Positions 730 to 20,544 of a DNA stretch of 24,000 nt are shown here, one piece after another. The number at the start of each line of letters is the position of its first letter. The first letter of the stretch is position 1. Both the position numbers and the translations under genes were made by a program. The stretch spans positions 1 through 24,000 of the forward strand of contig CALRBD010000006.1 of NCBI GenBank assembly GCA_943353855.1, in the 5' to 3' direction. This DNA is from an uncultured Candidatus Saccharimonas sp. (GTDB lineage Bacteria > Patescibacteriota > Saccharimonadia > Saccharimonadales > AWTP1-31). The notes beneath the pieces were generated by a model. It saw only the letters and a program-made list of their open reading frames with translations, had not been told where the DNA came from and made no database searches.

Positions 730-1058
730 AGTGTTACTGTATCCTTATTTGCTTACTTATCCAAGTTTACTGTCGAAAGTATGACTCTGTTGTACGAAGT
801 ACTTAGTTCTGTGACAAATATTACTACGTAGTTGAGTCAAATTGACAATATTTAACCCACTAATTCTATCAAGTTTTCCACCATACTCCAAGTCTTTTCC
901 ACAGATTACAAGAGAGGGCCCTCCTCTGTGCACAAGTTTACTACTGTTTGCAAGACTTTTTATATGCCACCCCTAAAAGAAATTCTGGCTTGTGGAAAAC
1001 TCAGTCTTTTTTGTATAGAATACATTTATACCAATTAGATAGGGCGGTAGTAGGGGTT
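730..1058. promoter_or_regulatory. candidate oriC part 1 and rpmH/dnaA divergent promoter region with a DnaA-box cluster
   Basis: Non-coding spacer between divergent rpmH and dnaA. Matches to the DnaA box TTATCCACA: TTATCCAAG 757-765, TTTTCCACC 874-882, TTTTCCACA 895-903, TGTGCACAA 927-935 (reverse orientation, 2 mismatches) and TGTGGAAAA 991-999 (reverse orientation, 1 mismatch). Confidence 0.5.
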
Positions 1059-2426
1059 ATGAAAGACAGTTTATGGAAGTCAGTACTCGGTGAGATTGAA
1101 CTTACTGTTTCTCGTGCCAGTTTTATTACCTGGTTTAAAAACACTGAGTTACTCACAAATAAAGACGGCTTACTTGTAGTGGGTGTCCCTACTGTTTTCG
1201 TTAAGAATCAATTAGAGCGAAAATTTAATGACCTTATTATAGATACCCTAAAAAAGAATGGCGTTGAACCTACTAAGGTTGATTACAAGATCCATACAAA
1301 AGGAAAGAGCACACTACACAAGCGAAGTAGTGAGGAAACTGTCATGGTAGTCGCTCCTCAGCAAACTGACACAAAACCAAAATCTAGCTCCAGTGTTCGC
1401 CATTCATATCGACAAGGTTTGAATGAGAAATATACTTTTGATAACTTTATCGTTGGTTCTGGAAATGAATTAGCCTATGCTGCCTGCCAAGCTATCGCTA
1501 GCGCACCAGGAACAAGGTATAACCCACTCTTTCTATACGGTGGAGTAGGTATTGGTAAGACACACCTTATTCAGGCTGTTGGTAATGCGATTCTATCTAA
1601 CGACCCTAAAGCTCATGTTGTCTATATTTCTTCCGAGCAATTTGTCCAGGAATTCTTAGACGCAATTCGTTATAAGAAAAATACTGACTTTGCAGGATTC
1701 TATAGAAGTGCAGATGTTCTTATTGTGGATGATATGCAGTTTATTGCGGGTAAAGAGAAGACTCAGGAAGAATTCTTCCATACATTTAACGCACTACACC
1801 AAGCAAATAAGCAGATTATTATTAGTAGCGATAAACCACCTAAAGATATTCCTACACTGGAAGAGCGTCTTAGATCTCGATTTAACTGGGGAATGAGTAT
1901 TGATATGCAAATTCCAGATTTCGAAACTCGCTGTGCTATTGTCCAGACAAAGTCCACAACTCATGGAATTACATTAGAACCGAGCGTTGTTGAATATCTA
2001 GCAACTCACGTCCAAACAAACATTAGAGAATTAGAAGGGGCCTTAAATCAATTATTAGCTTTTTGTGAAATGAGGGGTCTACAACCTGAACTTCAAATTG
2101 CTACAAGCTTACTTGGATCCAGTAAGGTCCGTCCTAAGCACATTAATGCTAAGCAAATAGTTGAAAAGACTGCAAAACATTACCATGTCAGCATGGAAGA
2201 TATTATGGGTCCTAAGCGAGATAAAGATATTGTAGTACCAAGACAAATAGCAATGTATATATTACGCAGTGAGCTTCATTTAAGTTTTCCAAAAATCGCA
2301 AGGGAGCTTGGACGTAAAGATCATACGACAGCAATTCATTCAGTCGAAAAAATAGCTAAAGAAAGTACACTTGATGCCGACCTAAGAACTGCAATTTCTG
2401 AAATAAAGGATCGCTTGTATGCATAG
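1059..2426 (+). CDS. dnaA: chromosomal replication initiator protein DnaA
   Basis: The translation has the DnaA N-terminal motif (WKSVLGEIELTVSRASFITWFKNTELL), an AAA+ Walker A (GGVGIGKTHL), Walker B (LIVDDMQF) and the C-terminal DNA-binding helix (DHTTAIHSVEKI). I chose the ATG at 1059, preceded by AGGGG at 1052-1056. The track's TTG at 948 would read through the DnaA boxes. Confidence 0.95.
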   Translation: MKDSLWKSVLGEIELTVSRASFITWFKNTELLTNKDGLLVVGVPTVFVKNQLERKFNDLIIDTLKKNGVEPTKVDYKIHTKGKSTLHKRSSEETVMVVAPQQTDTKPKSSSSVRHSYRQGLNEKYTFDNFIVGSGNELAYAACQAIASAPGTRYNPLFLYGGVGIGKTHLIQAVGNAILSNDPKAHVVYISSEQFVQEFLDAIRYKKNTDFAGFYRSADVLIVDDMQFIAGKEKTQEEFFHTFNALHQANKQIIISSDKPPKDIPTLEERLRSRFNWGMSIDMQIPDFETRCAIVQTKSTTHGITLEPSVVEYLATHVQTNIRELEGALNQLLAFCEMRGLQPELQIATSLLGSSKVRPKHINAKQIVEKTAKHYHVSMEDIMGPKRDKDIVVPRQIAMYILRSELHLSFPKIARELGRKDHTTAIHSVEKIAKESTLDADLRTAISEIKDRLYA

Positions 2427-2714
2427 TAAAAATATAGTCTTGTACTGTGGACAAGCTGTGCAGCGTATATGGACAGCTTGTAGTATAACTACGAGTTTTG
2501 TCCCCTCCCCTGCTTTTTGCACACATTTTGTGCGCAGCCTGTGTGTAAATAGTGGTACTTTTACACTACTTATGCCCCTATCTTTTACTCGTCTTATTGT
2601 CGGTTTCTTCCCTGTTAGTAACGACTTATACTCATTACCCACAGGCCCTACTATAAGTACTATATTTCTAAATAAGAATTCATTTAATAATAAGACAATG
2701 GCAAGGAGCTGTGT
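2427..2714. promoter_or_regulatory. candidate oriC part 2 (dnaA-dnaN spacer with a DnaA box, an inverted repeat and an AT-rich stretch)
   Basis: 288-bp spacer, long compared with the tight packing elsewhere in the window. It contains TGTGGACAA at 2447-2455 (reverse DnaA box, 1 mismatch), a related TATGGACAG at 2468-2476, an inverted repeat ACAAGCTGT 2451-2459 / ACAGCTTGT 2473-2481, and an AT-rich run at about 2655-2700 that could act as an unwinding element. Confidence 0.4.
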
Positions 2715-3806
2715 ATGAAATTGCAAGTAACTCAAGAAAATCTAAATAAAGCACTATCAAGTGTTGCCCGTATTGCTAATACCCGCGGCACATTACCGAT
2801 TCTAGCTAACGTAGTTTTAAGGACAGTTGGTACGAGATTAACAATCGCTGCAACAAACTTGGATATTGCAATAACCCACTATATTGGATCAAAAGTTAGT
2901 GAAGAAGGAAGTATTACCGTTCCAGCCCGACTCATGCAAGATTTTGTAGGTAGTCTACCTAGTGGTGTCATTGAACTTAAGCTAGATGACTATAAGCTGC
3001 ATATTACTACCGATCAATACAATTCTGTAATCAATGGTGTATCTGCTGAAGAGTTCCCTGTTATGCCAGCAATTACTGAAGGAAAAAATTGGACAATACC
3101 GGTGAAAGTTTTCAAGAAAGGACTTCAGCAAGTACTTGTAGCTGCCAGTAATGATGAAGCAAGACCAGTTCTTACTGGTCTTTATATCCACACATCTGGT
3201 GGAAAACTATACATTGCGTCCACAGATAGCTACCGTTTAGCTGAAAAAGAAATTATGCCACTTGAGGAAGATATAAATATTCTCGTGCCGGCAAGTTCAA
3301 TGCAGGAGCTACTTCGCGTTATTGGAGATCAGGATACGGATATCGAAATAATACATGACGATCAGCAAGTTCTATTTAAGGTCGGTGAAGTTGAACTTAT
3401 GACTCGACTTATTGATGGCAATTACCCTGACTACAAGAAACTGATTCCTAGTACTTTTGCAGTTACCGCTACATTGAAGCGAGCAGATTTCGTGAATATC
3501 ACAAAAGTGTCGAGCTTGTTTGCGAAAGAAAGCGCCGGAAGCGTCACTATTCACGCTGACCCAGAAGCTAAATCTGTCAGTATTCGCTCTGTTGCCTCTC
3601 AACTCGGAGAGAATACTGCTCAAGCTGACGCCGATATTACAGCTGAGGGCTCAATTACCTTGAACTCTCGATATCTTCTAGATGCACTCGGAACGCTCAA
3701 TAGTGATATGGTCATGCTCTGTTTTAACGGTAAACTTGAGCCCTGTGTTCTTAAGGAAGCAAAATCAACAGATTATATCCATGTGATTATGCCGCTCAAG
3801 AGTTAA
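2715..3806 (+). CDS. dnaN: DNA polymerase III beta sliding clamp
   Basis: 363-aa ORF with typical DnaN features (MKLQVTQENLNKALSSVARIA, TRLIDGNYPDYKKLIP, LNSRYLLDAL). Canonical position after dnaA. Confidence 0.95.
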   Translation: MKLQVTQENLNKALSSVARIANTRGTLPILANVVLRTVGTRLTIAATNLDIAITHYIGSKVSEEGSITVPARLMQDFVGSLPSGVIELKLDDYKLHITTDQYNSVINGVSAEEFPVMPAITEGKNWTIPVKVFKKGLQQVLVAASNDEARPVLTGLYIHTSGGKLYIASTDSYRLAEKEIMPLEEDINILVPASSMQELLRVIGDQDTDIEIIHDDQQVLFKVGEVELMTRLIDGNYPDYKKLIPSTFAVTATLKRADFVNITKVSSLFAKESAGSVTIHADPEAKSVSIRSVASQLGENTAQADADITAEGSITLNSRYLLDALGTLNSDMVMLCFNGKLEPCVLKEAKSTDYIHVIMPLKS

Positions 3807-3815
3807 AGTAGTAGT

Positions 3816-4868
3816 ATGATTTCTGATTTACGGCTTCAAAGCTATCGTTCATATGGCGATGCTACTTTTGAATTTGGCGAAGGAGTGAACATTATCGTTG
3901 GAGCTAATGCTAGTGGTAAAACAAATCTTCTTGAAGCTATTCTGGTTCTTTGTCGTGGATCATCTTATAGAGCTAAAGATATAGATCTTATTTCTTTTGA
4001 TGCACCATGGACTAGGTTAGATATGACAACTCAAGACGGAAAACGGACTGTCACATTAGAACGTAAAGATACTAACTCTGAAAAAAAGTATGTAATTCAA
4101 TCAGTACCACTTAAACGCCTTGTTTTAAATAAAACGATTCCAGTTGTAGTCTTTGAGCCAGACCACCTGCGACTACTGAGTGGTGGACCTGAAAGACGTC
4201 GAGAATATATAGATGGAATACTAGAACAAACAATTACCGGATATGCGACTCTGAGGCGAGAGTATAAAAGAACATTAGCTCAACGAAATAGATTACTTAA
4301 AAGTATGTATATAAATAATGATGAAATGTTCGTCTGGAACGTACGTCTGTCTGAGTTGGCAGGAAAAATAGTTCTATACCGTACTATCCTCATCGATAAG
4401 CTTCAAGAAGAGATTTCAGATATATATCAATCTCTTTCTAAAACTAATAATGAGATAACGATTAATTACTTAAGTAGCTGTAATATTTCTAATTACTCTA
4501 CGGATCTAATGAAACATCTCGAACAGAACATAGACGAGGATAAACAACGCGGCTTTACGTCATATGGGCCGCATAGAGACGATATTATTATAAAAATAGA
4601 TTCACACCCAGCTGCGATTAGTGCGTCCCGTGGAGAGAGTCGTACGATCTTATTAACACTAAAAATTCTCGAACTAAAAATTATAGAAAAAAGCCGGAAC
4701 AAGAAACCTATTTTTCTACTTGATGATGTCTTTAGTGAATTAGATGGTTCAAGACGTAAAGCCTTAACAAACTATCTTCAAGACTACCAAACGTTTATAA
4801 CAACTACAGACGCCGACATAGTCGTACATCACTTTATGGATAAGTGTAGAATTATACCGATTACCTAA
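3816..4868 (+). CDS. recF: DNA replication and repair protein RecF
   Basis: 350-aa ORF with an N-terminal Walker A (GANASGKTNLLEAI), an SMC-like signature region (SRGESRTILLTLKI) and Walker B (IFLLDDVFSELD). Canonical dnaA-dnaN-recF order. Confidence 0.9.
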   Translation: MISDLRLQSYRSYGDATFEFGEGVNIIVGANASGKTNLLEAILVLCRGSSYRAKDIDLISFDAPWTRLDMTTQDGKRTVTLERKDTNSEKKYVIQSVPLKRLVLNKTIPVVVFEPDHLRLLSGGPERRREYIDGILEQTITGYATLRREYKRTLAQRNRLLKSMYINNDEMFVWNVRLSELAGKIVLYRTILIDKLQEEISDIYQSLSKTNNEITINYLSSCNISNYSTDLMKHLEQNIDEDKQRGFTSYGPHRDDIIIKIDSHPAAISASRGESRTILLTLKILELKIIEKSRNKKPIFLLDDVFSELDGSRRKALTNYLQDYQTFITTTDADIVVHHFMDKCRIIPIT

Positions 4869-5446
4869 TCTACCAAGTTTTCATTGTTAATTGGAGGAGG
4901 ATTAGTCACTATACCTGAATCAAACACGAGTTTCGTTCCTTGGTTTAGTTTAAGTTGAATATCTGCAACTCCAGAGTATGTGACTACGGCAGATAATTTT
5001 TCTTTCCTTTGGATGAGTGTATCGAAGGATATAGATGGATTACCGCCTGTTTCTCTATCGATTGGATTAGAGGTAACAGAGTCTACGTAGACACTAACTT
5101 CTTTTTTACCGTTATCGCCTTTACCTAAGTAAGTATTGAAGGCAATTTTTAAATTGGTAAGTTGATCCTGAGAAAGCCCGTATTGAATCAATTTACCAAA
5201 ACCTAAAAATACCGGCTCAGTCGATGCATTATCTTCAAGTATTTCAGGAGTCTTATCTGCCTTATCGTCAATAGTTTCTTTTGATGCAGGATCGTAGTAT
5301 ACATCCGTTTTGTTTTGTGTTTCTTTACCTAGGAATGACACAAATAATACAATAAGCCCAATAACTATAAAAGCCCCAATCGCTATACCTATTTTTTTAT
5401 TCCTGGAAAGATTAACATTCTCTTGAAAATTACTTAGTAATTGCAT
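4865..5446 (-). CDS. hypothetical bitopic membrane protein, last gene of the T4SS-like operon (possible VirB8/PrgL analogue)
   Basis: 193-aa ORF with a short N-terminus, one TM helix (IGIAIGAFIVIGLIVLFVSFL) and an extracytoplasmic domain of about 150 aa. Its start overlaps the upstream gene by 17 nt. Its stop overlaps the recF stop by 4 nt. Confidence 0.6.
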   Translation of the reverse strand: MQLLSNFQENVNLSRNKKIGIAIGAFIVIGLIVLFVSFLGKETQNKTDVYYDPASKETIDDKADKTPEILEDNASTEPVFLGFGKLIQYGLSQDQLTNLKIAFNTYLGKGDNGKKEVSVYVDSVTSNPIDRETGGNPSISFDTLIQRKEKLSAVVTYSGVADIQLKLNQGTKLVFDSGIVTNPPPINNENLVD

Positions 5447-6686
5447 AAGTACTACCTCCTGGCATTGCGCTTAATATTTGTTGAGGATCCCATTCTTGCG
5501 TATTGGCAGCTTCATGTGCTGAATCTCCCACTAGTAATTTACCTGAGGCTGTAACTGCCCGAATAACGATATAGTGTCCACCTTTACTGAAAGGCACTGG
5601 ACCTTTACCTGAAGTTATAACTAGTCCACCAGCTTGCAAAGTTTGAGTTATTCTTGCAAGATCTTTTCCTATTGGTGTTGCTTTTAGTCCCCAGTTTTGA
5701 GCTAAGACTGGCGCTATACTCCATGAGCTTCCTGAGCCTGGTATGTATAGTCCTTTACTAGCAGCAAAGTTTGCAGTTTCTGGCGGCTTTACGCTTTTAC
5801 CTGTTAAGTTAGTTATAATCATTGCCATTGCGGAAGGCCCACAGCCTGACTCACCAATCGTGCTGGAAGAGTATGGCAAATTCCTCCAGGCTGGATCGTA
5901 CTGACTATAAACTGTAAAACCATCTATATATTTTGTGTTTTCTCCGGCTCCTGTTGCAGGTCCACAATTAGCACTTGGCGATTCTGTAGATGAAGTAGTT
6001 GTAGTGCCTTGTACTGCCCCACCGTATGTAGCAAGCGTCTTATTACCTGCATCAATACGTTTCGCCAAACCCTGAACATTAGTTAAGGGTACTTTACTGG
6101 TACTACCATCAATAATTGCGACCTCAAAGAACCTACCCCAATACCAAGCTGAAAGATCTACAGATGGCTGCGGCTTAATACCTTCGATATTACCCCTACT
6201 CTCAGCCTCATACCAAGCAAACTGCAATTGACCGTCAAGCGATAGCGGATCTAAATTCTTTTCAGCTGTCCATTTCTTTAGGTTCGCAAACCTACCTTTG
6301 GTATCCCACTGGAACATTCCTGAAAAACCACCGCTCTTAGAGACTGAGTTTGGGTTAACGCCTGATTCAGCAATTGCATTTCCAGTTATTCCCGCAGCTT
6401 GTTCTTTCGTGAGACCTTTTGATACAAAAAACCTGAATGTTTTTTCGGTGTTGTCGTTACCATTTAGGTCTATCGACACTGCACTATCAGGCACAGAACA
6501 TTTAGCCTCTACTGCACAACTGAGGTTAATTGCTCCAATATTTCTCAAATAACTTTGATCACATTGCCTATCCGTTAGTGCGAATGCAGCCCTCGGTACA
6601 AGTGCTGAAATACTGAAAACACTAATAAACATTAATATCTTAAGTGTCTTGAGAATATTTAATAAATATTTATGGTAGTACTTCAT
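5430..6686 (-). CDS. secreted two-domain cell-wall hydrolase: phage-tail-lysozyme-like domain plus C39-like papain-fold cysteine peptidase domain
   Basis: Signal-peptide-like N-terminus (MKYYHKYLLNILKTLKILMFISVFSISALVPRAAFA). Residues about 90-230 (GLTKEQAAGITGNAIAESGVNP...GMFQWD...LDGQLQFAWYE) look like the Phage_tail_lysozyme family. A Thr/Ser linker follows. Then comes a C39_2-like domain with catalytic-looking Cys (GESGCGPSAMAMI) and His (GGHYIVI). I chose the start at the ATG 6686-6684. The ATG at 6632 is an alternative. Confidence 0.8.
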   Translation of the reverse strand: MKYYHKYLLNILKTLKILMFISVFSISALVPRAAFALTDRQCDQSYLRNIGAINLSCAVEAKCSVPDSAVSIDLNGNDNTEKTFRFFVSKGLTKEQAAGITGNAIAESGVNPNSVSKSGGFSGMFQWDTKGRFANLKKWTAEKNLDPLSLDGQLQFAWYEAESRGNIEGIKPQPSVDLSAWYWGRFFEVAIIDGSTSKVPLTNVQGLAKRIDAGNKTLATYGGAVQGTTTTSSTESPSANCGPATGAGENTKYIDGFTVYSQYDPAWRNLPYSSSTIGESGCGPSAMAMIITNLTGKSVKPPETANFAASKGLYIPGSGSSWSIAPVLAQNWGLKATPIGKDLARITQTLQAGGLVITSGKGPVPFSKGGHYIVIRAVTASGKLLVGDSAHEAANTQEWDPQQILSAMPGGSTYAITK

Positions 6687-9600
6687 AGCCCTGGTATAGT
6701 CCTTTTGAAATATCAATAAATCTTGCTTTTACATCAGCCGAACAAGCATCTCTACTGCATTGGGCCCTACCCTTACCTTTCATAGCATCAAAATGTAGAT
6801 GCGGTGGTGAATTACAGGCAGCCGGCGATGATCCTACGACCCCAATCTTATCTCCTGGTTTTAATACTGCACCTTTAGCTACGCCTCCTGCACCAGGATC
6901 CATATGTTGATAGAAATACGTAGCATCATTCACAGAATCATATACTGTAACAGTGAATGCTGATCCAAAACCGTGGCCACAATCACCTTTATCGGCCTTT
7001 AATACCGTTCCAGAGGAGGCTGCAAGAACTGGTGTACCTGGAGCTGCAAATAGATCATGTGCTTTATACTTATGGCCAGCATCACATATTGATTTTTGAG
7101 CTATCTGTAGACATGAACCGAGAGAGCTTTGAACCTGTGCTTTAGATTGCTGAAGCGGCCAAGTTAGTCCCGCTGACACGCCAGCACCTGCAGCTGGAGG
7201 AGGCCCTAATTGTGAAATAAGAAAAGTAGACTTTGCGGCATAGCCCGCACCGTTTAAATGTATTCCATCACCAGCACCAGGATATTTGGCTTTGTTTTTC
7301 GCGTATTCAGAACTCCAATCAATAACCTTGAATTTTAATGCCAATGATTGAAGAAGTAAGCTAGAATTGTCCGCCGCATAGTCTTGTTTATCTGTACGAG
7401 AATTCATCCAGACTATATTAGCCGTTGGATTTATCCCTCGTATAGTGTCGACCATCTGCTTTATTTTTTCTGCATATCCAGTAGACGCATTCGTACCAAG
7501 CATTACAACTACCGTTCCTGCCTGAGCTACTATTGCGCTATCTACAGTAACTTTAGTTATAGCCTGTTCAGTTCTGTCCCCAACAGTCGCTTCAATATCT
7601 GTTGAATCCCAGCCTGCAGCAGTGTATTTATCCCTTAGTCCTCCGGCATCCCGCATACCAACTGTAAGAGAATCACCAACCGTGTAGACTTTATTGTTAC
7701 CCGATCCTATAGCTGCCGAGTCTGCTGCAGATGGAGTATCTATATCTTCAGGAAAGAACTCAGCCTCAAACGCATCTGTTGTATCTAGATAAGCTAGGTG
7801 AGCCTTGAATTGCTTAGTCTGCTGCTTTTCTGCAAGGCAGTCAGACTCATCGGATTCCTCGATCTGCGTAAGTATATCGGTATTTTCTACACAATTTTCA
7901 ACATGTCTCGCAAAGGCGCTGCCCTCAATTGGTAGCAGGGTCTGGGCGTCGATCTGATTATCCGCAATTAAGGCATCGGAGTTAGGCTCAGGATCAATTG
8001 CTTCAATATCTGGCCGCATAATAACCTGAAGATTACCAGCAGGGTCCGTAGCTAAATCAGTTTTTTTACCATTACTTCCATTTAGCGTATAAGTATCGTA
8101 AGAAACCTCATCACCAACTTCAGCTGAAACTCTACCCGTAAATAAGTTACCCAAGGTGCTCAAGTATCTGCCTGGATTTAGTACTGAAGATGCAAGAGAC
8201 ACGGAAGCATCCTTACTACTGTTAACTAAGCCAGTAACACTTGTTGGTGTTGCTAATGCGAGATTAAACATCAGGTTGTTGGGTTGCTCCGGATTAAGTA
8301 ATTTTTCTTTAAAACTCAAATTTTTAAATTGCTCATTTCTCCAAGCTATATACTCACCTTCAGCTGCAGCGTATTGCTGAGTCGTTGCTGGCACCATACC
8401 AGCAGACAGCGACCTTTGTTTATTGGAGGCACCCGCACCGGCTACTAGAATATCTCCCAGTTGACCACCTTTCTCTTGTCCAGTAAAAGGTAGTGTGAGC
8501 TGTTTTTGAACATAAGCCTGCATGTAACCCATGAATGCCTCGAATCCAAGATTTCCAATAGCCCCTAAAGCAACTTGTTTTAATGCCTGTTTTGAAATTA
8601 TTGAAGCTACTATATCTTTTACTACCGTCTGAAGCGCTATCTTGAAAGAGCCTTCAGCAAGCAAAATAGCAACTTCACTTTGTCCGCCCGAAAAGACTCC
8701 CGCAACCACACTAGCCGCACCAGCACCTACTTGTACTATTGGGTTCTGTACGACTGGACAACCGGCTCCAAGTCCTGGGGTCCCGTCAAGCTTTTCGTTT
8801 ATTCCACCTACTACTCCAGTTAGTTTGCCGTCCACTGCTACGGATTGCTTTGTTTGTTTATTTCTGCTTTTGCTAAACTTACTCTTCATCATATATGCAA
8901 AACCTGGCGACCCCCCAATAGAATTTCCATTAGAATCCTCTGACATAACACGCTTCATAAGTGAATTAAGAAGCTTGGGGTCAGCGTTTCCTCGTCTTGT
9001 ATCGTCTGCTGCATTAATGAAAACCATAGCATAGCGGATAAGTTTAATGGATCTTGCAGCCCTAGCTAACTGTATAGCGGTCTGTGCACGCTTCTTTATA
9101 GTGCAGACTTTATCTAATATATCTAGTGGGTTTAGTAACCCCTTAGCTCCTGCGGTAAATTTTGATCCAAAGGAAACGCTTGCAGCTCCATTTTCTAGAC
9201 TTTCTTGAAGGGCTTCATCTATAGTCCCAGATGCAATTCCCGCAGCAATACCTTTAGTGTTTACATCTGCACCTTCAGTAAGTATAGCTTTACGTTCGGC
9301 ATCTAGCTCTTCAGTAAGTGCTCCGCCAGTATCATTGGCTTTTGCTGCTCGTTCTTCATAGGATTGTTTTTCTTCTGGTGTCTTACCATCCGTATCATTT
9401 GTAGTATTAATTGCGTCTATCTCCCCTTTTTTATTGGGGTCAAGTACTTCCGTAGCAACATTTTTATTAACCTGATTATTTGCTGGAAGATCTTTGTCAG
9501 GACTATTTTTTGCTTTTGCTGCATCTATAACTGAGGTACTTGTAACACCATATATCTTTTTAAAAGCATTCATCCGTTTAGTTTTCCAACGCGAGGATCT

Positions 9601-10221
9601 AAATGGATGTCTTTGGTCCATCCATGCCTCCACATTATCGCCTATAGCATTTCCAATAAGGCCGTTTGCTCCTCTAGATGTCTGAAGACCTATGAGTGAA
9701 CCTTTCTTGTAACTTAATATATAGCCATCTGCCGCTAGCTCGTCTACCATCTTATTGGCCATGCGACCACCAGGTTTAAAGAAATTTTTCATCTTAGGAA
9801 TTTTCCCTTGCCGATATTTTCTTTGCTGGTACATTTGCACATTGCCAATCCGGCCAATGAGCATTTCCTTGAGCTGGTTGACTAGTAAGTTTGGAATTTG
9901 TAAGAAAATTAATATAAATCCAGTGATTAATGAAGAAGCGATACCAAAACCAATTGCTGCTCTTTTTTTGGAAAGCCTTGATTTAAAGGAATTACCTTTC
10001 GGCTTCCCTGGTTTGTATAACGAGCCCCCTTCGGATTTGTCTGCTTTAGTTGAAGAGGACTTCGCTCCCGATTTTTCCTTAGCTTGAATGTCTTTCGATG
10101 ACATGGCATCACTAGAAGATCCTTCATCCCCAGTTTCGCTTGTTTTGTCTAGGGACGTTTTCCAAGCGGGCTTATCCTCGTCGTAGATTCCTGCATTTCG
10201 TTCTTCTAGATCTGTCGCCAT
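6670..10221 (-). CDS. 1183-aa membrane-anchored multidomain protein with C-terminal SGNH/GDSL hydrolase and M23 (LytM) metallopeptidase domains
   Basis: Acidic/Ser-rich N-terminus of about 85 aa, one TM helix (AAIGFGIASSLITGFILIFLQIP) and a region of about 730 aa with no recognisable family. The SGNH domain (nt 7207-7698) has blocks GDS (VGDSLT), GxN (LGTNA) and DxxH (DGIHLN). The M23 domain (nt about 6673-7090) has HxxxD (HKYKAHD) and HxH (HLHF) motifs. The gene starts 3 nt after the virB4 stop. Confidence 0.85.
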   Translation of the reverse strand: MATDLEERNAGIYDEDKPAWKTSLDKTSETGDEGSSSDAMSSKDIQAKEKSGAKSSSTKADKSEGGSLYKPGKPKGNSFKSRLSKKRAAIGFGIASSLITGFILIFLQIPNLLVNQLKEMLIGRIGNVQMYQQRKYRQGKIPKMKNFFKPGGRMANKMVDELAADGYILSYKKGSLIGLQTSRGANGLIGNAIGDNVEAWMDQRHPFRSSRWKTKRMNAFKKIYGVTSTSVIDAAKAKNSPDKDLPANNQVNKNVATEVLDPNKKGEIDAINTTNDTDGKTPEEKQSYEERAAKANDTGGALTEELDAERKAILTEGADVNTKGIAAGIASGTIDEALQESLENGAASVSFGSKFTAGAKGLLNPLDILDKVCTIKKRAQTAIQLARAARSIKLIRYAMVFINAADDTRRGNADPKLLNSLMKRVMSEDSNGNSIGGSPGFAYMMKSKFSKSRNKQTKQSVAVDGKLTGVVGGINEKLDGTPGLGAGCPVVQNPIVQVGAGAASVVAGVFSGGQSEVAILLAEGSFKIALQTVVKDIVASIISKQALKQVALGAIGNLGFEAFMGYMQAYVQKQLTLPFTGQEKGGQLGDILVAGAGASNKQRSLSAGMVPATTQQYAAAEGEYIAWRNEQFKNLSFKEKLLNPEQPNNLMFNLALATPTSVTGLVNSSKDASVSLASSVLNPGRYLSTLGNLFTGRVSAEVGDEVSYDTYTLNGSNGKKTDLATDPAGNLQVIMRPDIEAIDPEPNSDALIADNQIDAQTLLPIEGSAFARHVENCVENTDILTQIEESDESDCLAEKQQTKQFKAHLAYLDTTDAFEAEFFPEDIDTPSAADSAAIGSGNNKVYTVGDSLTVGMRDAGGLRDKYTAAGWDSTDIEATVGDRTEQAITKVTVDSAIVAQAGTVVVMLGTNASTGYAEKIKQMVDTIRGINPTANIVWMNSRTDKQDYAADNSSLLLQSLALKFKVIDWSSEYAKNKAKYPGAGDGIHLNGAGYAAKSTFLISQLGPPPAAGAGVSAGLTWPLQQSKAQVQSSLGSCLQIAQKSICDAGHKYKAHDLFAAPGTPVLAASSGTVLKADKGDCGHGFGSAFTVTVYDSVNDATYFYQHMDPGAGGVAKGAVLKPGDKIGVVGSSPAACNSPPHLHFDAMKGKGRAQCSRDACSADVKARFIDISKGLYQGYEVLP

Positions 10222-10223
10222 AA

Positions 10224-12137
10224 TTATGATCCTGGGGTTAGTCTATTAGTAAGATCAATTGTACCTTGAGGTTGATTTAATTCACCCTGCTGCTCTATCG
10301 CCTTAACCTGATCAGGGTTAGTCGTAATAAGTGCGGTTTCAGTCGGGCTGCCGCTAATCTGTATGTGCACGTGACTTTGACCTGCAAAGAAGAGACCCTG
10401 ACCGACTGGGAATTGACTAAGACGCTTCTTTTCCTCACTTGTTAATTTAAATACTTCAGCTAGCTTATCTATAGCAGATGATGACTGCTTGAGAAGAAGC
10501 TGCATACTAGCGTTAGCCACGATCGCACGGCCCATTCGACTATTCATGAAATCTTCAACATCCTGGCTTATAGTTGTAATACCAAGGTTATATTTACGAG
10601 AACGTTTAGCTAGGCTGAACATGAAGTTTGCTGAATCTTCGTATTTCATGAGCTGCCAGGCCTCATCGATAATCAGGATACGTCTTTTCTTATCGCTCTT
10701 AGTCTTATTCCAGATGTAGTTCAGAACAATATACATAGCAACTGGACGTAGTTCATCTTCTAGGTCACGAATGTTAAAAACAACCATCGGATTGTTAATA
10801 TTAGTATTAGACTGTTGGCTAAATATTCCTGCGAAAGTTCCAGTAGTATATTTACGTAATCGTTGAGCAAGCTGAGGGCCAGTACCTCCCATGTGCAATA
10901 AGACATCGTAAAGATCTACGATTGTTGGCGGCAGTGCTTTATGTGTTAGTGGATCGTTTGTAATGCCGGCTTTTGAGTAAGTTTCAATAAGGGCAGCATC
11001 AAGATCAGATTCTTCTACCGGGTTAAGCGCAGGCATCGAAGCTGTTCCGCCTGAAACCATTTGTGATTGTGCTCCACCCATCATGAGGCGTAGCAAACCA
11101 TGGAGCGTTATGATGTTACTTCGAAGGGCATTGTCTGCATCTTCGTTATCAATAACTAACGGAAGGTCAAAAGGGTTAATGCGTGTTGCTGAGTTTAGGC
11201 TTAATCTTACGTATGAACCTCCAACAGCTTCACACATCCTTTGGTATTCGTTCTCTGGGTCAATAATAAAGATCTCAGTACCGAACATTAAACTTCGAAG
11301 TGCCTCAAGTTTTACTGCAAAAGATTTTCCTGCTCCAGACTTAGCAAATACAACAGAGTTTCCATTTTCAAGACTAAATCTATCAAAAATAACTAAGCCC
11401 GAGTTGTGCATGTTTATGCCATATAATATTCCATTATCTTGACTTAAATCCGCACTAGTAAATGGAAAACTTGTGCTGATAGCACCTGTGTTCATATTTC
11501 TTCTAATTAGAAGTTGATCTGTAAATTGCGGTATTACACTGTTAAAGGCTTGCTCCTGCTGAGACGTTGCTGCTTTAGAATAAACTAGCTGTTGACCTAG
11601 TACTGACTCAATTTTATGTGTTACAAACTCTAGCTCATCCAGGCTAGACCCGTAAATAGTGAAATACATACCAAACCGGAAGAAACGTTCTTCACCCACT
11701 TGAAGCTTATCTCGCATTTCTTCGGCATCTTGAATTGCAGCCTGCTTACCTGGGTCACGTGTTCTACCCTTCTCTGCATCAATCTGTAAACCAGCTTCAA
11801 GCTGAGTAACCTTTTTTCTGAGGTTTTCAAGCACAACCTGACTTTCTACGGGGTAAATATACATAGAAAGATCCATAACCTCATCCATATTAACCATACT
11901 ACTCAGCCAGCCTGTGAAAACTTGTCGAGGGTATCCATATACATATAGGGTTCGTGCGAAACGGGTTCCAATATGAAAGAAATTATTTTCATAGACTAAA
12001 GAGCTTGGTGCAATAAAATCGCGTAGTGCGGTAACACCTTTTTGGAAGGCTGCACCTACCTCTTGCTCTTCTTTGACTTTTTGAGCTTGAGCTATCGCTA
12101 CAGGATCTGCAGCTTGTTTTTTCTTTCCGAACGCCAT
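10224..12137 (-). CDS. virB4: VirB4/TraE/PrgJ-family type IV secretion ATPase
   Basis: 637-aa ORF with a VirB4-type N-terminal domain (ARTLYVYGYPRQVFTGWLSSM), Walker A (AKSGAGKSFAVK) and Walker B (RILIIDEAWQL). The start ATG overlaps the stop of the upstream gene (TAATG). Confidence 0.9.
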   Translation of the reverse strand: MAFGKKKQAADPVAIAQAQKVKEEQEVGAAFQKGVTALRDFIAPSSLVYENNFFHIGTRFARTLYVYGYPRQVFTGWLSSMVNMDEVMDLSMYIYPVESQVVLENLRKKVTQLEAGLQIDAEKGRTRDPGKQAAIQDAEEMRDKLQVGEERFFRFGMYFTIYGSSLDELEFVTHKIESVLGQQLVYSKAATSQQEQAFNSVIPQFTDQLLIRRNMNTGAISTSFPFTSADLSQDNGILYGINMHNSGLVIFDRFSLENGNSVVFAKSGAGKSFAVKLEALRSLMFGTEIFIIDPENEYQRMCEAVGGSYVRLSLNSATRINPFDLPLVIDNEDADNALRSNIITLHGLLRLMMGGAQSQMVSGGTASMPALNPVEESDLDAALIETYSKAGITNDPLTHKALPPTIVDLYDVLLHMGGTGPQLAQRLRKYTTGTFAGIFSQQSNTNINNPMVVFNIRDLEDELRPVAMYIVLNYIWNKTKSDKKRRILIIDEAWQLMKYEDSANFMFSLAKRSRKYNLGITTISQDVEDFMNSRMGRAIVANASMQLLLKQSSSAIDKLAEVFKLTSEEKKRLSQFPVGQGLFFAGQSHVHIQISGSPTETALITTNPDQVKAIEQQGELNQPQGTIDLTNRLTPGS

Positions 12138-13090
12138 TAGTGCATCTCCCTATCTAGACCTGGTTGTGGTGCTTCACCAACACCTTTAGATACTACAGGT
12201 ACTGAAAGATCTTCAAAATTCTTAAGTGGTTGGCGGGTCGCAGTGTCGGGGTTGTAGCTGTCATAGTAAAGTTCAATTAACTCTTGGGTATCAAGTGGTA
12301 GGCCTTGAATACCGCACTGCATAAGTCCTCCTAATACCGCCTGCACTCTGTTACGTAGCTCATCCTTTGCCTTCACTAGATCAGCTTCATTAATCAGCAC
12401 CTGGTTTTGTGGTTTCTTACTGAAAAGTGCTGAGACACCCTTAACGAGACCCTTACTTGAAGACAATGCTTTTTGTACATCAACCACAGGATAGTAAGGA
12501 ATAACTACATAGAACTTCTTGTCCATGATATTAACTTGCTGGCTTATAGTGTCCATGTAATTAATGTAGTCATCCATAAGTACCGCTAAGAGCATATTGT
12601 CATGCTCTGAGCGTATTTTATCGAGCTTTTGAATGTAGGGTCCGAGATCAACCTTTTGAGACCGAATCGTAATTTGAATAGGAAAATATAAAGAGTTTAA
12701 AAAGCCCTGATAGCTAAATTCAACTGATTCCCTTTCCTCAGGACTCATAAGATCAAAATTAATAGATTTAACCATGATAATCGAACGGAAGCTGCCGTCA
12801 TTCATAATTACAATACCGTCACGTATCTCTGCCATCTGCAAAGCGTTTTGTGTGCTATTAGGATTTGATTTGGGCGCAGCAACTGGAGTTTGTATTACGC
12901 CTGGCTGCTGTGAACCTGATCTAGTCTGGGGTGCATACATATTTCCAGGAATATTTGTTACTGGCACTGAACCGGGCATAGCAATAGACTGAGAAGCAAC
13001 GCCACTCGTCGGAGGAGGCCCATAAGGATTAGATGGGACGCCAGTTGTATTTGCTTGACCCATTTGAGGTTGATTATAAGAAGGATTCAT
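12137..13090 (-). CDS. hypothetical T4SS-associated protein: Pro/Gln/Asn-rich N-terminus plus a globular domain resembling a VirB4 N-terminal domain
   Basis: 317-aa ORF translationally coupled to virB4. The first 85 aa or so are low complexity (NPSYNQPQMGQ...PGVIQTPVAAPK). The rest (IRDGIVIMNDGSFRSIIMVKSINFDLMSPEERESVEFSYQGFLNSLYFPIQITIRS...KKFYVVIPYY) follows the same strand/helix pattern as the first 180 aa or so of the adjacent VirB4. It has no Walker motifs. Confidence 0.6.
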   Translation of the reverse strand: MNPSYNQPQMGQANTTGVPSNPYGPPPTSGVASQSIAMPGSVPVTNIPGNMYAPQTRSGSQQPGVIQTPVAAPKSNPNSTQNALQMAEIRDGIVIMNDGSFRSIIMVKSINFDLMSPEERESVEFSYQGFLNSLYFPIQITIRSQKVDLGPYIQKLDKIRSEHDNMLLAVLMDDYINYMDTISQQVNIMDKKFYVVIPYYPVVDVQKALSSSKGLVKGVSALFSKKPQNQVLINEADLVKAKDELRNRVQAVLGGLMQCGIQGLPLDTQELIELYYDSYNPDTATRQPLKNFEDLSVPVVSKGVGEAPQPGLDREMH

Positions 13091-13120
13091 ATATTTGTTT
13101 GCTACCCACCCGCTCTAGTA

Positions 13121-14107
13121 CTAATGAAGAGAAACAATTACTTCTTCGTCGAGTTGCCCATGAGCTTGATTGGTCTCACGCGCAAGACTTTCAACGGTTC
13201 TATCATTGTTCCTTGCAAGTTCAATTGTAACAGGGTCAGGGGCTACTGTCACTTGTGAAACTGGACTTTTTTGCGTTGGAACATCACTAATAGGTGCCAA
13301 TGATTTATGGTTTCTGAATGATTGACCAAATTGACTTTTATTCTCATGAATTTCATCAAGAAAAGCTTTTTCATTTGGATCGAGACCGCTTTCTTTATTC
13401 TTAAAAGCAGCTGGAAGATCCCCGTCATTACTAGGATTATTCTGCATAAACCAATTTGGTCGGGCATCATCTGGTTTATGCATCTGCTCTATTATTTCAC
13501 TCTTATGTTTTTGACTGTTTTCTTCTATTTTTGCAGCTATCTGAGCGGCTTGCGGATTATCAAATATATCCTCACTATCCGGGATATCTACAGCCGATAT
13601 TACAGAAGGAAGCATTGTAGGGTTCATCAATCTATCGCTAGCAGCCCCTCCAGCTGCAGCATAGGCAGGATTACTAACGATATTTTTAGTAGCCCAGCCT
13701 CGAGTATCTACAGTCTCTGCTAATGCTCTAAGCCTTTGTCTTACCTCATCTTGCGATAGGTTATCGCTAGTATATTGCGCCACTACTTTAGGAACATTAA
13801 TCTTTACTAGTTCTTGAATTCCAGTCTGATCCCATATTCTTTTACGTGGCTTAAAGTAAAATCGCAGTTTAGCTAGAAGCCACGTCTCTGTTGGCTGGTC
13901 TCTTCCCCACGGGAAGGCTAGAAAACCTGTAACAAGAATAAGTGGAAATAGTGGGATCGCCAAAAGCGGTAAGCCCTTTGTTATAAAAAGAAAACTCAAA
14001 TATGAACTCACTAATGCGATTGAACCAAAGATAAATTGTTTTAAGGTTAAGGGCCCTAAAAACTTATCTTCTGCTTCTATATCTTGTAATACTTTGTATG
14101 TTGCCAT
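13121..14107 (-). CDS. PrgI-family (VirB3-like) membrane protein with a long C-terminal extension
   Basis: The N-terminus MATYKVLQDIEAEDKFLGPLTLKQFIFGSIALVSSYLSF matches the PrgI-family signature (D-I-x-x-x-E-D-K-x-x-G-P-x-T-x-[KR]-Q-F-I). Two TM helices follow. The remaining 230 aa or so are polar and low complexity. Position upstream of virB4 fits a VirB3 role. Confidence 0.7.
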   Translation of the reverse strand: MATYKVLQDIEAEDKFLGPLTLKQFIFGSIALVSSYLSFLFITKGLPLLAIPLFPLILVTGFLAFPWGRDQPTETWLLAKLRFYFKPRKRIWDQTGIQELVKINVPKVVAQYTSDNLSQDEVRQRLRALAETVDTRGWATKNIVSNPAYAAAGGAASDRLMNPTMLPSVISAVDIPDSEDIFDNPQAAQIAAKIEENSQKHKSEIIEQMHKPDDARPNWFMQNNPSNDGDLPAAFKNKESGLDPNEKAFLDEIHENKSQFGQSFRNHKSLAPISDVPTQKSPVSQVTVAPDPVTIELARNNDRTVESLARETNQAHGQLDEEVIVSLH

Positions 14108-14167
14108 TTACTTATATATTAGCAAAGTTTTAGTGCTCTAAGTAGAGTATTACAAAAAAACCATAAG

Positions 14168-15007
14168 CTATTTTGACGATATCTCACTTTTTAAGTCTTC
14201 ATGCGCTTCCCTCTTTCGAGTAACTGCATTTCTATTTCTAGCTTGCTGACGCCCTTTTCTCATAACTTGTTTTTCAGCACGTCTAGTTTTACGGTGTGCT
14301 CTTCGCATAATTAAGCGAGAATAGTCTCCAACTCCTTCTTGCTTTTTCCGCTCTTTTGAGACGCTTCTAGTAGTATGGCGATCAACTTTAGTTATAATGG
14401 TACGATCAGCCTCCCTAATCCTGCGCCTTGCAGTTGAAGCGTCTACAGTTCCCGTAAGAAAATCACGACCTGCACTAAGCTTTCCAGTTATCTTGTTTAA
14501 CCTGGTTCTCCGAATGTTGGTAATCGGTCCTCTTGCGGATCTTTGTTTTTTTGCATATACTTTTGCATCTCTATATTTTTCGATTTTTCGATTCATTCGC
14601 CAATCTTTTAATTGCGTATAAAGATTACTAGATTCACGATCCGGTGCTTGTCTACCGCTACGACTATATATGTCTGATGTAAGCAGTGCTTCCATTCCTA
14701 TAGACCTGACAGTCTTCTGAGTCGAAATTGCCTCCTGATGACTGTCGGCGGCACTGTCTAGTGCTCTCTCGCCTCTTGCTTCCCTGACCAATGTAAGCCT
14801 TACGCCGGCAGCAGACAAAGCAAGCCTGCCTACATCAAAGGCCTGTTCCGCCCTCTCGCCAACGCGTTCCGCTCTCTCGCCTAATTCTTCCCCGATCAAT
14901 GTAAGCCTTGCACCGGCAGCAGACAAAGCAAGCCTGCCTACATCAAAGGCTTGTTTCGCTATTTCGCCAACGCGTTCCTTTATTGGCTTAGGTGACTCAC
15001 TACTCAT
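14168..15007 (-). CDS. hypothetical highly basic soluble protein with a tandem 36-aa N-terminal repeat
   Basis: 279-aa ORF with no TM segment. It has two copies of AFDVGRLALSAAG[AV]RLTL embedded in ERVGE...GERA units. The C-terminal half is very Arg/Lys-rich (RRTRLNK, RRRIREADR, RRAHRKTRRAEKQVMRKGRQQARNRNAVTRKR). It lies between the VirB6-like and PrgI-like genes. Confidence 0.7.
   Translation of the reverse strand: MSSESPKPIKERVGEIAKQAFDVGRLALSAAGARLTLIGEELGERAERVGERAEQAFDVGRLALSAAGVRLTLVREARGERALDSAADSHQEAISTQKTVRSIGMEALLTSDIYSRSGRQAPDRESSNLYTQLKDWRMNRKIEKYRDAKVYAKKQRSARGPITNIRRTRLNKITGKLSAGRDFLTGTVDASTARRRIREADRTIITKVDRHTTRSVSKERKKQEGVGDYSRLIMRRAHRKTRRAEKQVMRKGRQQARNRNAVTRKREAHEDLKSEISSK
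14766..14981. repeat. two tandem copies of a 108-bp unit inside the basic-protein CDS
   Basis: Copy A spans 14766-14873 and copy B spans 14874-14981. Both share the identical core CCGGCAGCAGACAAAGCAAGCCTGCCTACATCAAAGGC and the ends CTCTCGCC / AACGCGTTCC. The period of 108 bp equals 36 codons, so the repeat is in frame. Confidence 0.85.
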
Positions 15008-15056
15008 AATATTTCCATACTAACATCATTAATAATTAGTACAAATAATCCTTTTT

Positions 15057-18000: not shown

Positions 18001-18263
18001 ACTTTAACAGTGGCGCCCCCAGTACTCAGAAAGCCTTCATTAAAGGGCCCACTCCCTGCCTTGATTCCGTCAGAATTCAGCTTGTCTTGCACGCATCTAG
18101 CCATTGCTTCAAGCTTTAAAATCGTAGAGACTTTAGTAGTTAGCTGGCTTTCGTTTAATGCCGCACTGGCTTTTTGGGGTGATAATAAAGAGACTCCAAC
18201 AAAACTAAGTATAAAAACAAATGTTAGAGTTATCGATGAAATTTTGTTCATATATTTATTCAT
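15057..18263 (-). CDS. VirB6/TrbL-like polytopic T4SS channel protein with a large N-terminal ectodomain, a Gly/Ala/Arg-rich C-terminal region and a terminal S74 intramolecular-chaperone domain
   Basis: Signal/anchor sequence MNKYMNKISSITLTFVFILSFVGVSLLSPQKASA, then a Cys-containing ectodomain of about 340 aa. A block of hydrophobic helices at nt about 16415-17180 (e.g. LVLLMAFVTLIARQMFIIVLILFAPLAILAWIFPG) is typical of TrbL/VirB6. A tail of about 360 aa follows. The last 88 aa (nt 15060-15323) read SDRRLKKEIKYF...YVGVIAQEIAKQYPEAVTV...YYKVYYSRI, a good match to the endosialidase/tail-fibre chaperone (Peptidase_S74) domain. I moved the start to the ATG at 18263 because the track's GTG at 18332 overlaps a good promoter. 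Confidence 0.8.
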   Translation of the reverse strand: MNKYMNKISSITLTFVFILSFVGVSLLSPQKASAALNESQLTTKVSTILKLEAMARCVQDKLNSDGIKAGSGPFNEGFLSTGGATVKVGHIVEQQYGDWDCEDGKSSRQDAWFKLLLVNGSDSKRYTGWYSGDNPYAGPSTGNLKKNDNSLYFINRNNVPNYTYKESDGFLTGKTGGPAKAKVKDQINASIKKQNEGVSDDEKKAMTYLNYSAAFVKGCGAKIVTNVYGSNSDTVTIGDKTYTVNDDNGTASVGYGTHGVEDGEQSCVNIGNRMSNNYAAYAKVTGNKDQIPPGIANSDSGSTTGGADDSCEGQSGVTGWFGCPIINIIGSTTTWIDDQVQNLMVLQPNQYKENAGLKSAWTGFRNIALSLLVAAMMIIVISTALGLSFLDAYTVKKAFPKLIASIIFILLSWWLCILLIDVTTSIGQGLLGIMQAPFGNIGNENISTLFKVDGADGALQGGVLFVGAVSIFATSGALGIVGTWLGGALLVLLMAFVTLIARQMFIIVLILFAPLAILAWIFPGSAKAWQFWWSNFTKLLLMYPMVMALIGAGRIFAFSAAGAFTGLYGTIIKLTAYVIPYALIPFTFKAAGGVFGAVASKIQDTGRPGLDKLRKRRQQGYAQMGRDAKTGDLIRSGRYGQSISAGLNRGVSGLATGTRGRFGIGTKGNEARKRNLSNISGDAAKDPAFQNFLTRDGEAATVSALSGGTTAGGREAVNDLVRGQMETFDRQNPGATAQARDEFEATQTARFNRAYQAAAVQGFSKTNSAAAIANMGANKGMGIANGDVGSFERGIARMGGSALEQEDLRGAAAFSLRGAQRMDIGGGLGDAAANPDTYRARRNAYKDTSKRVGAAAMVTNAESAAATRDIVRTDAARVATMDPTMLDEDRADSFTFGHELITGLYQGSLGESRDEAIGMLQDLGIDPDLGQPAVTEMLANHFGYTTDPSRAGRMSILSNGRVAELIDPTMRSRTSSQPTTSDRRLKKEIKYFYTNDSGIKVYRYKYLWSEVEYVGVIAQEIAKQYPEAVTVDKWGYYKVYYSRIDIDFITYAEFKKRSSVVISSEIKS

Positions 18264-18303
18264 ATTTTTTTGAGTTAAGCGCCCAGACTTATTTGATAAA
18301 GTA

Positions 18304-20470: not shown

Positions 20471-20486
20471 TATGTAGCAAAACCAC

Positions 20487-20516: not shown

Positions 20517-20544
20517 AATAAGTAAGATTAACGAAAGGTTCATA

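Follow-up and report, generated by a model that had tools for sequence, protein, structure and literature searches.

The window analyzed here, a stretch of 24,000 nucleotides from an uncultured Candidatus Saccharimonas sp. (contig CALRBD010000006.1), contains a cluster of eight genes on the minus strand that codes for a type IV secretion system (T4SS). In this order, the genes encode a VirB6-like protein, a basic protein of 279 amino acids (aa), a PrgI/VirB3-like protein, a TraC/TrsD-like protein, VirB4, a large protein of 1183 aa that is the subject of this work, a lysozyme-type protein and a small exported protein. An earlier inspection of the letters without database searches, referred to here as the sequence-only reading, had described the large protein as a membrane-anchored combination of an SGNH esterase and an M23 peptidase within a T4SS operon. 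The open reading frame proposed at that time, at positions 6670 to 10221 of the minus strand with 1183 aa, was confirmed; it starts 2 nt past the stop codon of the VirB4 gene, and a protein identical to its product is encoded on 11 metagenome contigs. The protein belongs to a family whose members share a large conserved extracytoplasmic domain (ectodomain) and carry behind it wall enzymes of varying type. The gene and the parts of its product are the following:

6670..10221, minus strand: gene for the large protein, 1183 aa
9961..10221, minus strand: predicted cytoplasmic N-terminal tail, aa 1-87, of low complexity, with 18 K/R and 15 D/E
9886..9960, minus strand: single transmembrane anchor, aa 88-112, with a Kyte-Doolittle maximum of 2.2
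7726..9885, minus strand: ectodomain, aa 113-832, conserved and mostly alpha-helical, without a Foldseek match in the PDB or BFVD
9142..9519, minus strand: variable acidic low-complexity linker within the ectodomain, aa ~235-360, with poorly conserved columns and patches of low pLDDT
8494..8742, minus strand: Gly/Ala-rich hydrophobic helical hairpin, aa 494-576, nearly uncharged and of borderline transmembrane hydrophobicity
8407..8493, minus strand: the family's best-conserved motif, LPFTGQEKGGQLGDILVAGAGASNKQRSL, at aa 577-605, pLDDT >90
7234..7680, minus strand: predicted SGNH esterase module, aa 848-996, with S851, G881, N911, D985 and H988
7189..7209, minus strand: LGPPPAA linker, aa 1005-1011, the junction at which M23 and VanY are exchanged among close relatives
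6673..7194, minus strand: variant M23 peptidase module, aa 1010-1183, with its Pfam core at aa 1053-1150

The single N-terminal membrane anchor of the sequence-only reading was recovered as one strongly hydrophobic helix, and the corresponding segments of 48 homologues had a family median Kyte-Doolittle value of 2.1 and 0% charged residues. In a Kyte-Doolittle scan, eight K/R residues were found in the 18 residues preceding the helix and two following it. Because of this asymmetry, the N-terminus is expected inside the cell and, following the positive-inside rule, aa 1-87 should be cytoplasmic and the rest of the protein should be outside the cell. The start of the N-terminal tail is partly conserved (MxxDLxxR..IYDD).

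Behind the anchor, about 730 residues had been reported to contain no placeable motif, and indeed a Pfam scan of aa 86-832 gave no match even at E ≤ 1. This region is nevertheless what relatives have in common. The 27 close homologues, all from Saccharibacteria, share the first ~830 residues and differ in their C-termini, and an exhaustive profile search that used the N-terminal domain (N-domain) by itself reached 675 clusters with E ≤ 1e-3. Of these, 77 had E ≤ 1e-30, and almost all members were 800-1300 aa long. Within the ectodomain, the variability of the linker was read from poorly conserved columns in three alignments (A1, A2, and A6), while the most conserved motif has G581, Q582, E583, G585, I591, L592, G595, and G597 as invariant residues. 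Four Cys residues (373, 488, 777, and 795) are invariant across 69 sequences and all ten Cys of the protein are located outside the membrane, which fits an exported, disulfide-bonded domain, and this is probably what the ectodomain is. A structural model calculated with AF2 from an alignment of 69 sequences was compact, all-alpha and confident, with a pLDDT of 77.4 and a pTM of 0.81; a 14-sequence alignment gave a pLDDT of only 58.7. The Foldseek comparison that had been suggested for the uncharacterized middle of the protein was carried out with this model, and no match at E ≤ 0.001 was obtained in the PDB or among the viral structures of BFVD, the best BFVD match (E 0.16, TM ~0.09) being noise.

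The Gly/Ala-rich stretch noticed previously was located at aa 498-513 (VGAGAASVVAGVFSGG), within the hairpin. Its hydrophobicity is conserved in the family (mean Kyte-Doolittle value of 1.35-1.38 for aa 494-513), and the hairpin is the least confident region of the AF2 model (pLDDT 35-45 at aa 497-525 and 545-557). In the homologue P0048, aa 513-654, equivalent to aa ~494-640 of the large protein and spanning the Gly/Ala-rich region and the TGQEKGG motif, match the Pfam family SseC, a translocon component of type III secretion systems, with 23.7 bits, below the gathering threshold of 30.2. A Pfam scan of the large protein itself did not show this match, and we regard the sub-threshold score as a hint only.

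Phages, too, have long helical proteins that contain hydrophobic, Gly-rich segments and end in a wall hydrolase, namely tape-measure or ejection proteins such as T5 Pb2 that carry M23 or lysozyme modules. An analogy to these proteins was considered and rejected. Neither the PDB nor BFVD provided a fold match, the AF2 model is compact, unlike an extended coiled coil, and tblastn searches with the ectodomain found nothing in phages. Similarly, no match on conjugative plasmids was obtained by tblastn at E ≤ 0.01. Matches of the large protein to PHROGs were confined to its M23 part, and the gene next to it matches tape-measure PHROGs.

The ectodomain, and not the enzymes, is the defining part of the family. 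Locus L004 encodes, at 1981..4599, a complete member of 872 aa (P0043) that lacks any C-terminal enzyme, so the ectodomain can exist without a fused hydrolase. In this locus, the neighbor gene carries SGNH, Phage_lysozyme2, and C39_2 domains.

In contrast to the N-domain, the C-termini are highly diverse. Among 100 members with a near-complete N-domain, 91 had C-terminal tails of at least 60 aa, and these were classified as VanY (50), M14 (11), M23 (8), SGNH plus M23 (8), SGNH plus VanY (3), and other (11), a class that may hide divergent types. Pfam scans of 97 cluster representatives agree with this distribution and add single cases of NlpC/P60, CHAP, Amidase_2, and Amidase_3. On a neighbor-joining tree of 80 N-domain sequences, which is crude, the peptidase type switches at least 25 times and SGNH arises at least twice. 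The alignment of P0001-P0008 is continuous through FLISQLGPPP and then abruptly passes into either M23 or VanY, and the cassette type differs even between proteins that are ~75% identical. The VanY and M14 cassettes score well against family models of active enzymes. The C-terminus is, according to these data, a slot for exchangeable wall enzymes.

Swapping of C-terminal modules behind a conserved N-terminal region recalls polymorphic toxins and phage lysins, and one might envisage an effector in which the ectodomain serves delivery or trafficking and the C-terminal enzymes are lytic toxins released onto the host. Some Patescibacteria do lyse their hosts, as described for the host Gordonia amarae (PMC11880426). 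However, the protein has a transmembrane anchor and a cytoplasmic tail at its N-terminus, occupies a fixed position in a T4SS core operon, has a tail-less relative and resembles no phage or plasmid protein in tblastn searches, and the loci examined contain no immunity-like gene that changes along with the cassette. We therefore regard a toxin-like effector as very improbable.

The first of the two enzyme modules of the large protein was recognized by the Pfam model Lipase_GDSL_2 (PF13472) at aa 848-996; the score was 35.2 bits with the entire protein and rose to 41.3 bits when the domain was scanned by itself (cutoff 32.9). The complete SGNH catalytic set of the sequence-only reading (GDS, GxN, and DxxH) held up and is represented by GDSLT (aa 849-853, with S851), GTN (N911), and DGIH (D985, H988) at nt 7252-7677. 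The catalytic residues in these blocks are kept in every SGNH-bearing homologue and are invariant in 9 aligned sequences. The oxyanion Asn is among them. The Gly of Block II, an oxyanion-hole residue and G881 in the large protein, is a Ser in the close homologues P0002 and P0006, and a Ser at the Block II position is known from SpOatA (PMC9487903).

When a profile built from nine sequences was compared with the PDB, the closest solved relative was the C-terminal domain of OatA from Staphylococcus aureus (SaOatA; 6VJP; PMC9487903), which matched from end to end with E 1.5e-10. The next matches were lipases and TesA with E from 1e-6 to 1e-4 (best 2.5e-6), followed by the more distant S. pneumoniae OatA (5UFY), Ape1 (4K3U), and PatB; 7TRR was listed as a further solved relative. 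A single-sequence phmmer search of the SGNH module against the PDB found nothing, and the OatA C-terminal domain was seen only with the nine-sequence profile. A grouping with lipases, which would have spoken against a role at the wall, was not seen, as the wall-acting OatA domain scores best (1.5e-10 versus 1e-6 or worse). Like the SGNH module of the window, the OatA domain is small (~160 aa), has GDS, GTN, and DGIH blocks, and is extracytoplasmic and associated with peptidoglycan. Unlike OatA, the large protein has no AT3 membrane domain, and conservation of the Asp that coordinates water in SaOatA is ambiguous from the alignment. Because an AT3 or MBOAT acetyl-donor domain occurs neither in the large protein nor anywhere in the 24-kb window, hydrolysis seems more likely than transfer for this module.

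Pattern scans of genomes and metagenomes gave no more than 8 and 9 loci, so that statistics on the co-occurrence of SGNH with other domains are limited; a word-indexed homologue search using the SGNH domain alone gave just three proteins and was not informative. SGNH modules were present in 12 of 16 loci. In eight of them (L004, L005/L019, L006, L017, L018, with a weak match, L022, L027, and L029) the module is fused to the Phage_lysozyme2 or SLT domain of the neighbor gene. The copy in the neighbor gene of L006 is 40% identical to the SGNH of the window (E 2e-35) and shares with it the sequence GDSLTVGMRD. Where SGNH resides in the large protein (the window, L001, L028, and L008), the neighbor gene lacks it. 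All SGNH loci but one clearly pair the module with a muramidase or SLT domain; the ambiguous case is L018, with a weak, sub-threshold glucosaminidase match. In L002 and L003, where the neighbor gene combines glucosaminidase and amidase, SGNH is absent from the whole locus. An SGNH association is thus common in these loci and not unusual, and the one clade-specific feature is that the module stands next to M23 within the large protein.

Acetylation of N-acetylmuramic acid (MurNAc) at O-6 inhibits muramidases (PMC9487903; PMC11323569). Since SGNH accompanies enzymes of the muramidase/SLT type and this modification inhibits muramidases, the simplest reading is that the module may be a de-O-acetylase that acts as partner of a glycan cutter. 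The fusions in eight other loci and the absence from the two loci with glucosaminidase and amidase support the previous idea that esterase and lysozyme act in stages. A different substrate, such as acetylated teichoic or capsular polysaccharide, acyl groups linked to arabinogalactan or envelope lipids of an actinobacterial host, would be compatible with the generic Lipase_GDSL_2 model as the only family-level match, with lipases and thioesterases as the next-best solved relatives, and with the fact that SGNH-AT3 relatives also acetylate O-antigen (PMC9487903). However, the OatA C-terminal domain leads all other solved relatives by about four orders of magnitude, most loci have the module joined to muramidase or SLT, and it is missing from both loci in which a glucosaminidase is the glycan cutter, which makes a substrate other than O-acetylated peptidoglycan rather unlikely.

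The second enzyme module matched Pfam Peptidase_M23 at aa 1053-1150 with 47 bits (cutoff 28.7). Of the zinc ligands claimed previously, HxH stood, as HLH (H1141-L-H1143), and HxxxD did not: a regular expression search found no HxxxD anywhere in the protein, and the first motif reads instead G-H1050-K-Y1052-K-A-H1055-D1056, that is, H-x-Y-x-A-x-D. In HMMER and MAFFT alignments with lysostaphin, LytM, 6YJ1, and canonical family members, the canonical first zinc-binding His aligns with Tyr1052. The two His of HLH, the middle His (H1106) and D1056 are invariant, and so is the displaced H1050, two residues upstream of the canonical position, even in distant members. Compared with M23 peptidases of the lysostaphin/LytM type, with which Asp, middle His, and HxH align (also in 6YJ1), the module differs by a first motif of the form H-x5-D with Tyr at the canonical His, by an extra CGHG insertion and by six Cys residues, which are invariant. 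Other family members carry the canonical HxGxD. The variant motif is invariant in the clade, is conserved in at least 13 family members and recurs in P0095 and P0106, whose N-domains are only ~22% identical; for this reason the variant M23 looks like a conserved sub-type rather than a product of decay.

The surrounding genes agree with the T4SS operon context that had been proposed; they encode a VirB4 split in two, PrgI, a VirB6-like protein and six pilins resembling VirB2:

18455..20955, plus strand: six genes for VirB2-like T4SS pilins in an array that is transcribed divergently
15057..18332, minus strand: polytopic VirB6-like membrane protein that ends in a Peptidase_S74 chaperone domain
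14168..15007, minus strand: very basic protein of 279 aa, between the VirB6-like gene and PrgI, without family match
13121..14107, minus strand: PrgI/VirB3-like gene
12137..13090, minus strand: TraC/TrsD-like N-part of VirB4, 317 aa
10224..12137, minus strand: C-part of VirB4, the ATPase part of 637 aa
5430..6632, minus strand: Sec-exported protein of 400 aa with a Phage_lysozyme2 muramidase and a Peptidase_C39_2 cysteine peptidase (partner gene)
4865..5446, minus strand: small exported protein of 193 aa that closes the cluster, conserved, and positional counterpart of SEML1_0005

The T4SS cluster (4865..18332, minus strand) abuts dnaA, dnaN, and recF (948..4868, plus strand), and therefore lies in the replication origin region, as it does in L001, L003, L005, L026, and L028; a T4SS cluster adjoining dnaA-dnaN-recF was noted by Quinonero-Coronel et al. 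(2025). The order PrgI, TraC-like, VirB4, large protein, lysozyme gene, small exported protein, and recF-dnaN-dnaA is found in the window and in L001, L003, L005, L009-12, and L026-29. A family member sits between VirB4, which is immediately upstream of it, and a lysozyme-type gene in the window, L001-L008, L014, L015, L017-L019, L022, and L026-L029, and even members that are merely 20-25% identical keep this position.

The separate lysozyme-like gene that had been reported to follow the large protein exists and encodes Phage_lysozyme2 and Peptidase_C39_2 domains. On identical contigs it is called as a gene for 400 aa, which leaves a gap of 37 nt to the gene for the large protein. The longest open reading frame, with a TTG start at 6716, 84 nt further out, would overlap that gene by 47 nt and is probably an artefact. 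All lysozyme-type neighbors (in the window, L004, L005, L006, L017, L018, L022, and L027) share a Cys-rich motif directly behind the signal peptide, C-x-E-x2-LR-[DN]-[LI]-G-x-A-x3-C-x5-6-C, which is present whatever enzymes follow it and which might serve for docking to the T4SS or to the large protein. The gene for the large protein and the SGNH-lysozyme gene are separated by an extra gene for ~200 aa without a Pfam match in L017 (9047..9646), L018 (4787..5404), L022 (4326..4919), and L024 (4660..5256); L017 and L022 are loci of the M14 type, and the window has no such gene. In L015, the neighbor gene of a distant member (5560..8460, 966 aa) combines Glyco_hydro_43 with Phage_lysozyme2, which hints that a polysaccharide other than peptidoglycan may also be targeted in some lineages.

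Further upstream, the stop and start codons of the two VirB4 parts overlap, and the split is kept in all related loci examined. The 279-aa protein contains two tandem repeats of ~36 aa (ERVGE..AFDVGRLALSAAG.RLTL); a gene for 279 aa is also present at the edge of L028, and L001 has no open reading frame of at least 150 aa at that position. In the VirB6-like protein, aa 1004-1053 match the Peptidase_S74 intramolecular chaperone (Pfam E 5.7e-8), and the protein also matches PHROGs of tail-fiber and virion structural proteins. Such a chaperone is typical of self-cleaving phage tail spikes or fibers and was unexpected on a T4SS channel protein.

As a comparison class, we used the VirB1-like hydrolases of Gram-positive T4SSs, namely PrgK of pCF10, TraG of pIP501, and CwlT of ICEBs1. 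On pCF10 the gene order is PrgI-VirB4-PrgK, and the large protein of the window occupies the position of PrgK, which supports its description as a T4SS-operon wall hydrolase. PrgK consists of a cytoplasmic domain, a transmembrane helix, a degenerate LytM domain, a muramidase domain resembling phage tail lysozymes and a CHAP domain (PMC11323569). Like the large protein, it is encoded after PrgI and a VirB4 of the CD1110 type and has an N-terminal cytoplasmic segment and one transmembrane helix. Also, its order LytM-muramidase-CHAP equals that of M23 in the window followed by Phage_lysozyme2 and cysteine peptidase, divided over two genes, an arrangement seen most plainly in L026. In Pfam scans the large protein itself has no glycan-cleaving SLT or muramidase domain; such a domain is encoded by the next gene, whose product has the lysozyme motif in common with the muramidase domain of PrgK. 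In contrast, PrgK lacks SGNH as well as anything that corresponds to the 720-aa ectodomain, and homology of the ectodomain to PrgK was rejected (hhalign probability of 0.1%, no significant HSP in BLASTP). The sequence-only reading had listed the usual domains of Gram-positive T4SS hydrolases without an M23-type domain, which was incomplete in view of the degenerate LytM domain of PrgK (PMC11323569). A T4SS hydrolase with an M23-like domain therefore has a precedent, and an SGNH association is not new within this clade of systems; what is specific to the lineage of the window is that SGNH has been relocated into the large protein beside the variant M23. What this work adds is that the C-terminus behaves as a cassette, that SGNH is OatA-like and hops between genes, that the M23 motif is a conserved variant and that no fold in the libraries searched matched the ectodomain.

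In PrgK, neither LytM, which lacks both zinc motifs, nor CHAP is active, and the two domains down-regulate the muramidase domain (PMC11323569). By analogy with the PrgK LytM domain, EnvC, and NlpD, the C-terminal modules of the family might be non-catalytic, binding the wall to anchor the T4SS or regulating the neighboring muramidase, and the Tyr at the position of the canonical HxxxD His as well as the family member without enzyme tail would fit. We consider this improbable, since the M23 of the large protein, unlike the PrgK LytM, keeps D1056, H1106, and HxH, three of the four elements, and offers an alternative invariant His two residues upstream, since every copy of SGNH retains the Ser-Asp-His triad and the Asn, and since VanY and M14 cassettes have good scores with models for families of active enzymes.

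The resemblance to PrgK bears on the question whose wall is opened. The large protein might be a plain equivalent of VirB1 or PrgK that opens only the peptidoglycan of its producer for channel or pilus, the diversity of cassettes being neutral shuffling as in conjugative elements. The shared operon position, the N-terminal membrane anchor (tethered PrgK reaches only mid-wall; PMC11323569), the descent of the Patescibacterial T4SS from monoderm conjugation machinery (it is MPF-FATA-derived) and the variable domain content of VirB1-type enzymes in conjugative elements all speak for such housekeeping at the self wall. Yet this is a chromosomal, dnaA-adjacent, vertically syntenic and essential locus in which the enzyme has switched at least 25 times among 80 relatives, even between ~75% identical proteins, which is hard to square with a single stable self substrate, and the ectodomain is not homologous to PrgK. 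Action on the producer's wall only is a serious possibility, to which we assign somewhat less than even chances.

The T4SS of the window is the one that Wang et al. (2023; PMC10633639) and Quinonero-Coronel et al. (2025) have described from Saccharibacteria, which need it to grow on their host bacteria. In Southlakia epibionticum ML1, SEML1_0007 encodes a "hypothetical protein" of 1113 aa directly downstream of VirB4, in which a C-terminal DD-peptidase is the only recognized domain and which was scored essential for epibiotic growth in Tn-seq (PMC10633639). The genes SEML1_0005-0010, whose lengths match those of the cluster in the window, were likewise scored essential (PMC10633639; also noted in PMC12102498). 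From gene order, sizes and C-terminal architecture, we infer that the gene for the large protein is the counterpart of SEML1_0007. Both lie downstream of a split VirB4 and PrgI, both are followed by a gene for lysozyme and cysteine protease and by a small exported protein, and both have only a C-terminal wall peptidase that can be annotated. They differ in that ML1 has a VanY/DD-peptidase cassette and no SGNH, whereas the window has SGNH and the variant M23, and in that the neighbor gene of ML1 has two lysozyme-like domains. We place the large protein among the T4SS-associated wall hydrolases, as a member of an essential gene family that had already been flagged.

Taking these observations together, we consider it reasonably probable that the large protein is a membrane-anchored scaffold integral to the T4SS, whose tip, together with the product of the neighbor gene, would open peptidoglycan by de-O-acetylation, muramidase action and peptide cleavage. 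The cytoplasmic tail and the transmembrane helix would fix the protein in the epibiont membrane near VirB4, VirB3, and VirB6, and the helical ectodomain of ~720 aa would be the structural part that defines the family. SGNH would strip 6-O-acetyl groups from MurNAc and thereby let the secreted muramidase of the phage-tail type cut glycan strands, while M23 and the cysteine peptidase would cut peptide stems or cross-links. The outcome might be a local hole in the wall for T4SS channel and pilus.

Several points weigh against this proposal. The assignment of the SGNH module to a subfamily by sequence is weak, the Pfam model SGNH-AT3 does not match the module, and OatA itself is a transferase and not an esterase (PMC9487903). 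A muramidase occurs without SGNH in L026, in the distant L015 and, according to the literature, in ML1 (PMC10633639), and the co-occurrence sample is small and phylogenetically non-independent. With the canonical first zinc ligand replaced by Tyr, activity of the M23 module is not assured, and the LytM domain of PrgK is a precedent for an inactive one (PMC11323569). Finally, the homology to SEML1_0007 is drawn from synteny and architecture and not from direct alignment.

With regard to the target, the fast turnover of cassettes in a vertically inherited, essential and origin-proximal locus favors a variable external target, the host wall, whereas tethering and the precedent of PrgK favor the producer's own wall. 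That the host wall is among the targets, alone or together with that of the producer, seems to us to have a chance only just below even, with a small share left for some other target. The family might even be a host-aimed, envelope-breaching T4SS tip with a membrane-insertable hairpin, whose fast-evolving enzymes, in the C-terminal slot and in the product of the neighbor gene, are matched to peptidoglycan and O-acetylation of the host, so that cassette content helps to set host range; as a whole, this extended version is unlikely.

Much of the bacterial diversity that has not been cultured belongs to the Patescibacteria, whose T4SS was the first for which essentiality to the carrier bacterium itself was shown. 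The family described here is central to this system and unites a large domain, for which the libraries searched gave no fold match, with a slot for rapidly exchanged wall enzymes, and the movement of SGNH between adjacent genes adds a case for de-O-acetylation as a step that a secretion system needs before it can breach a wall. If only the producer's own wall is remodeled, the protein would be an ordinary, though elaborately built, VirB1 equivalent. If, instead, the cassettes track the wall chemistry of the host, they would provide a marker of host range that can be read from sequence, and a direct experimental handle in tractable Saccharibacteria.

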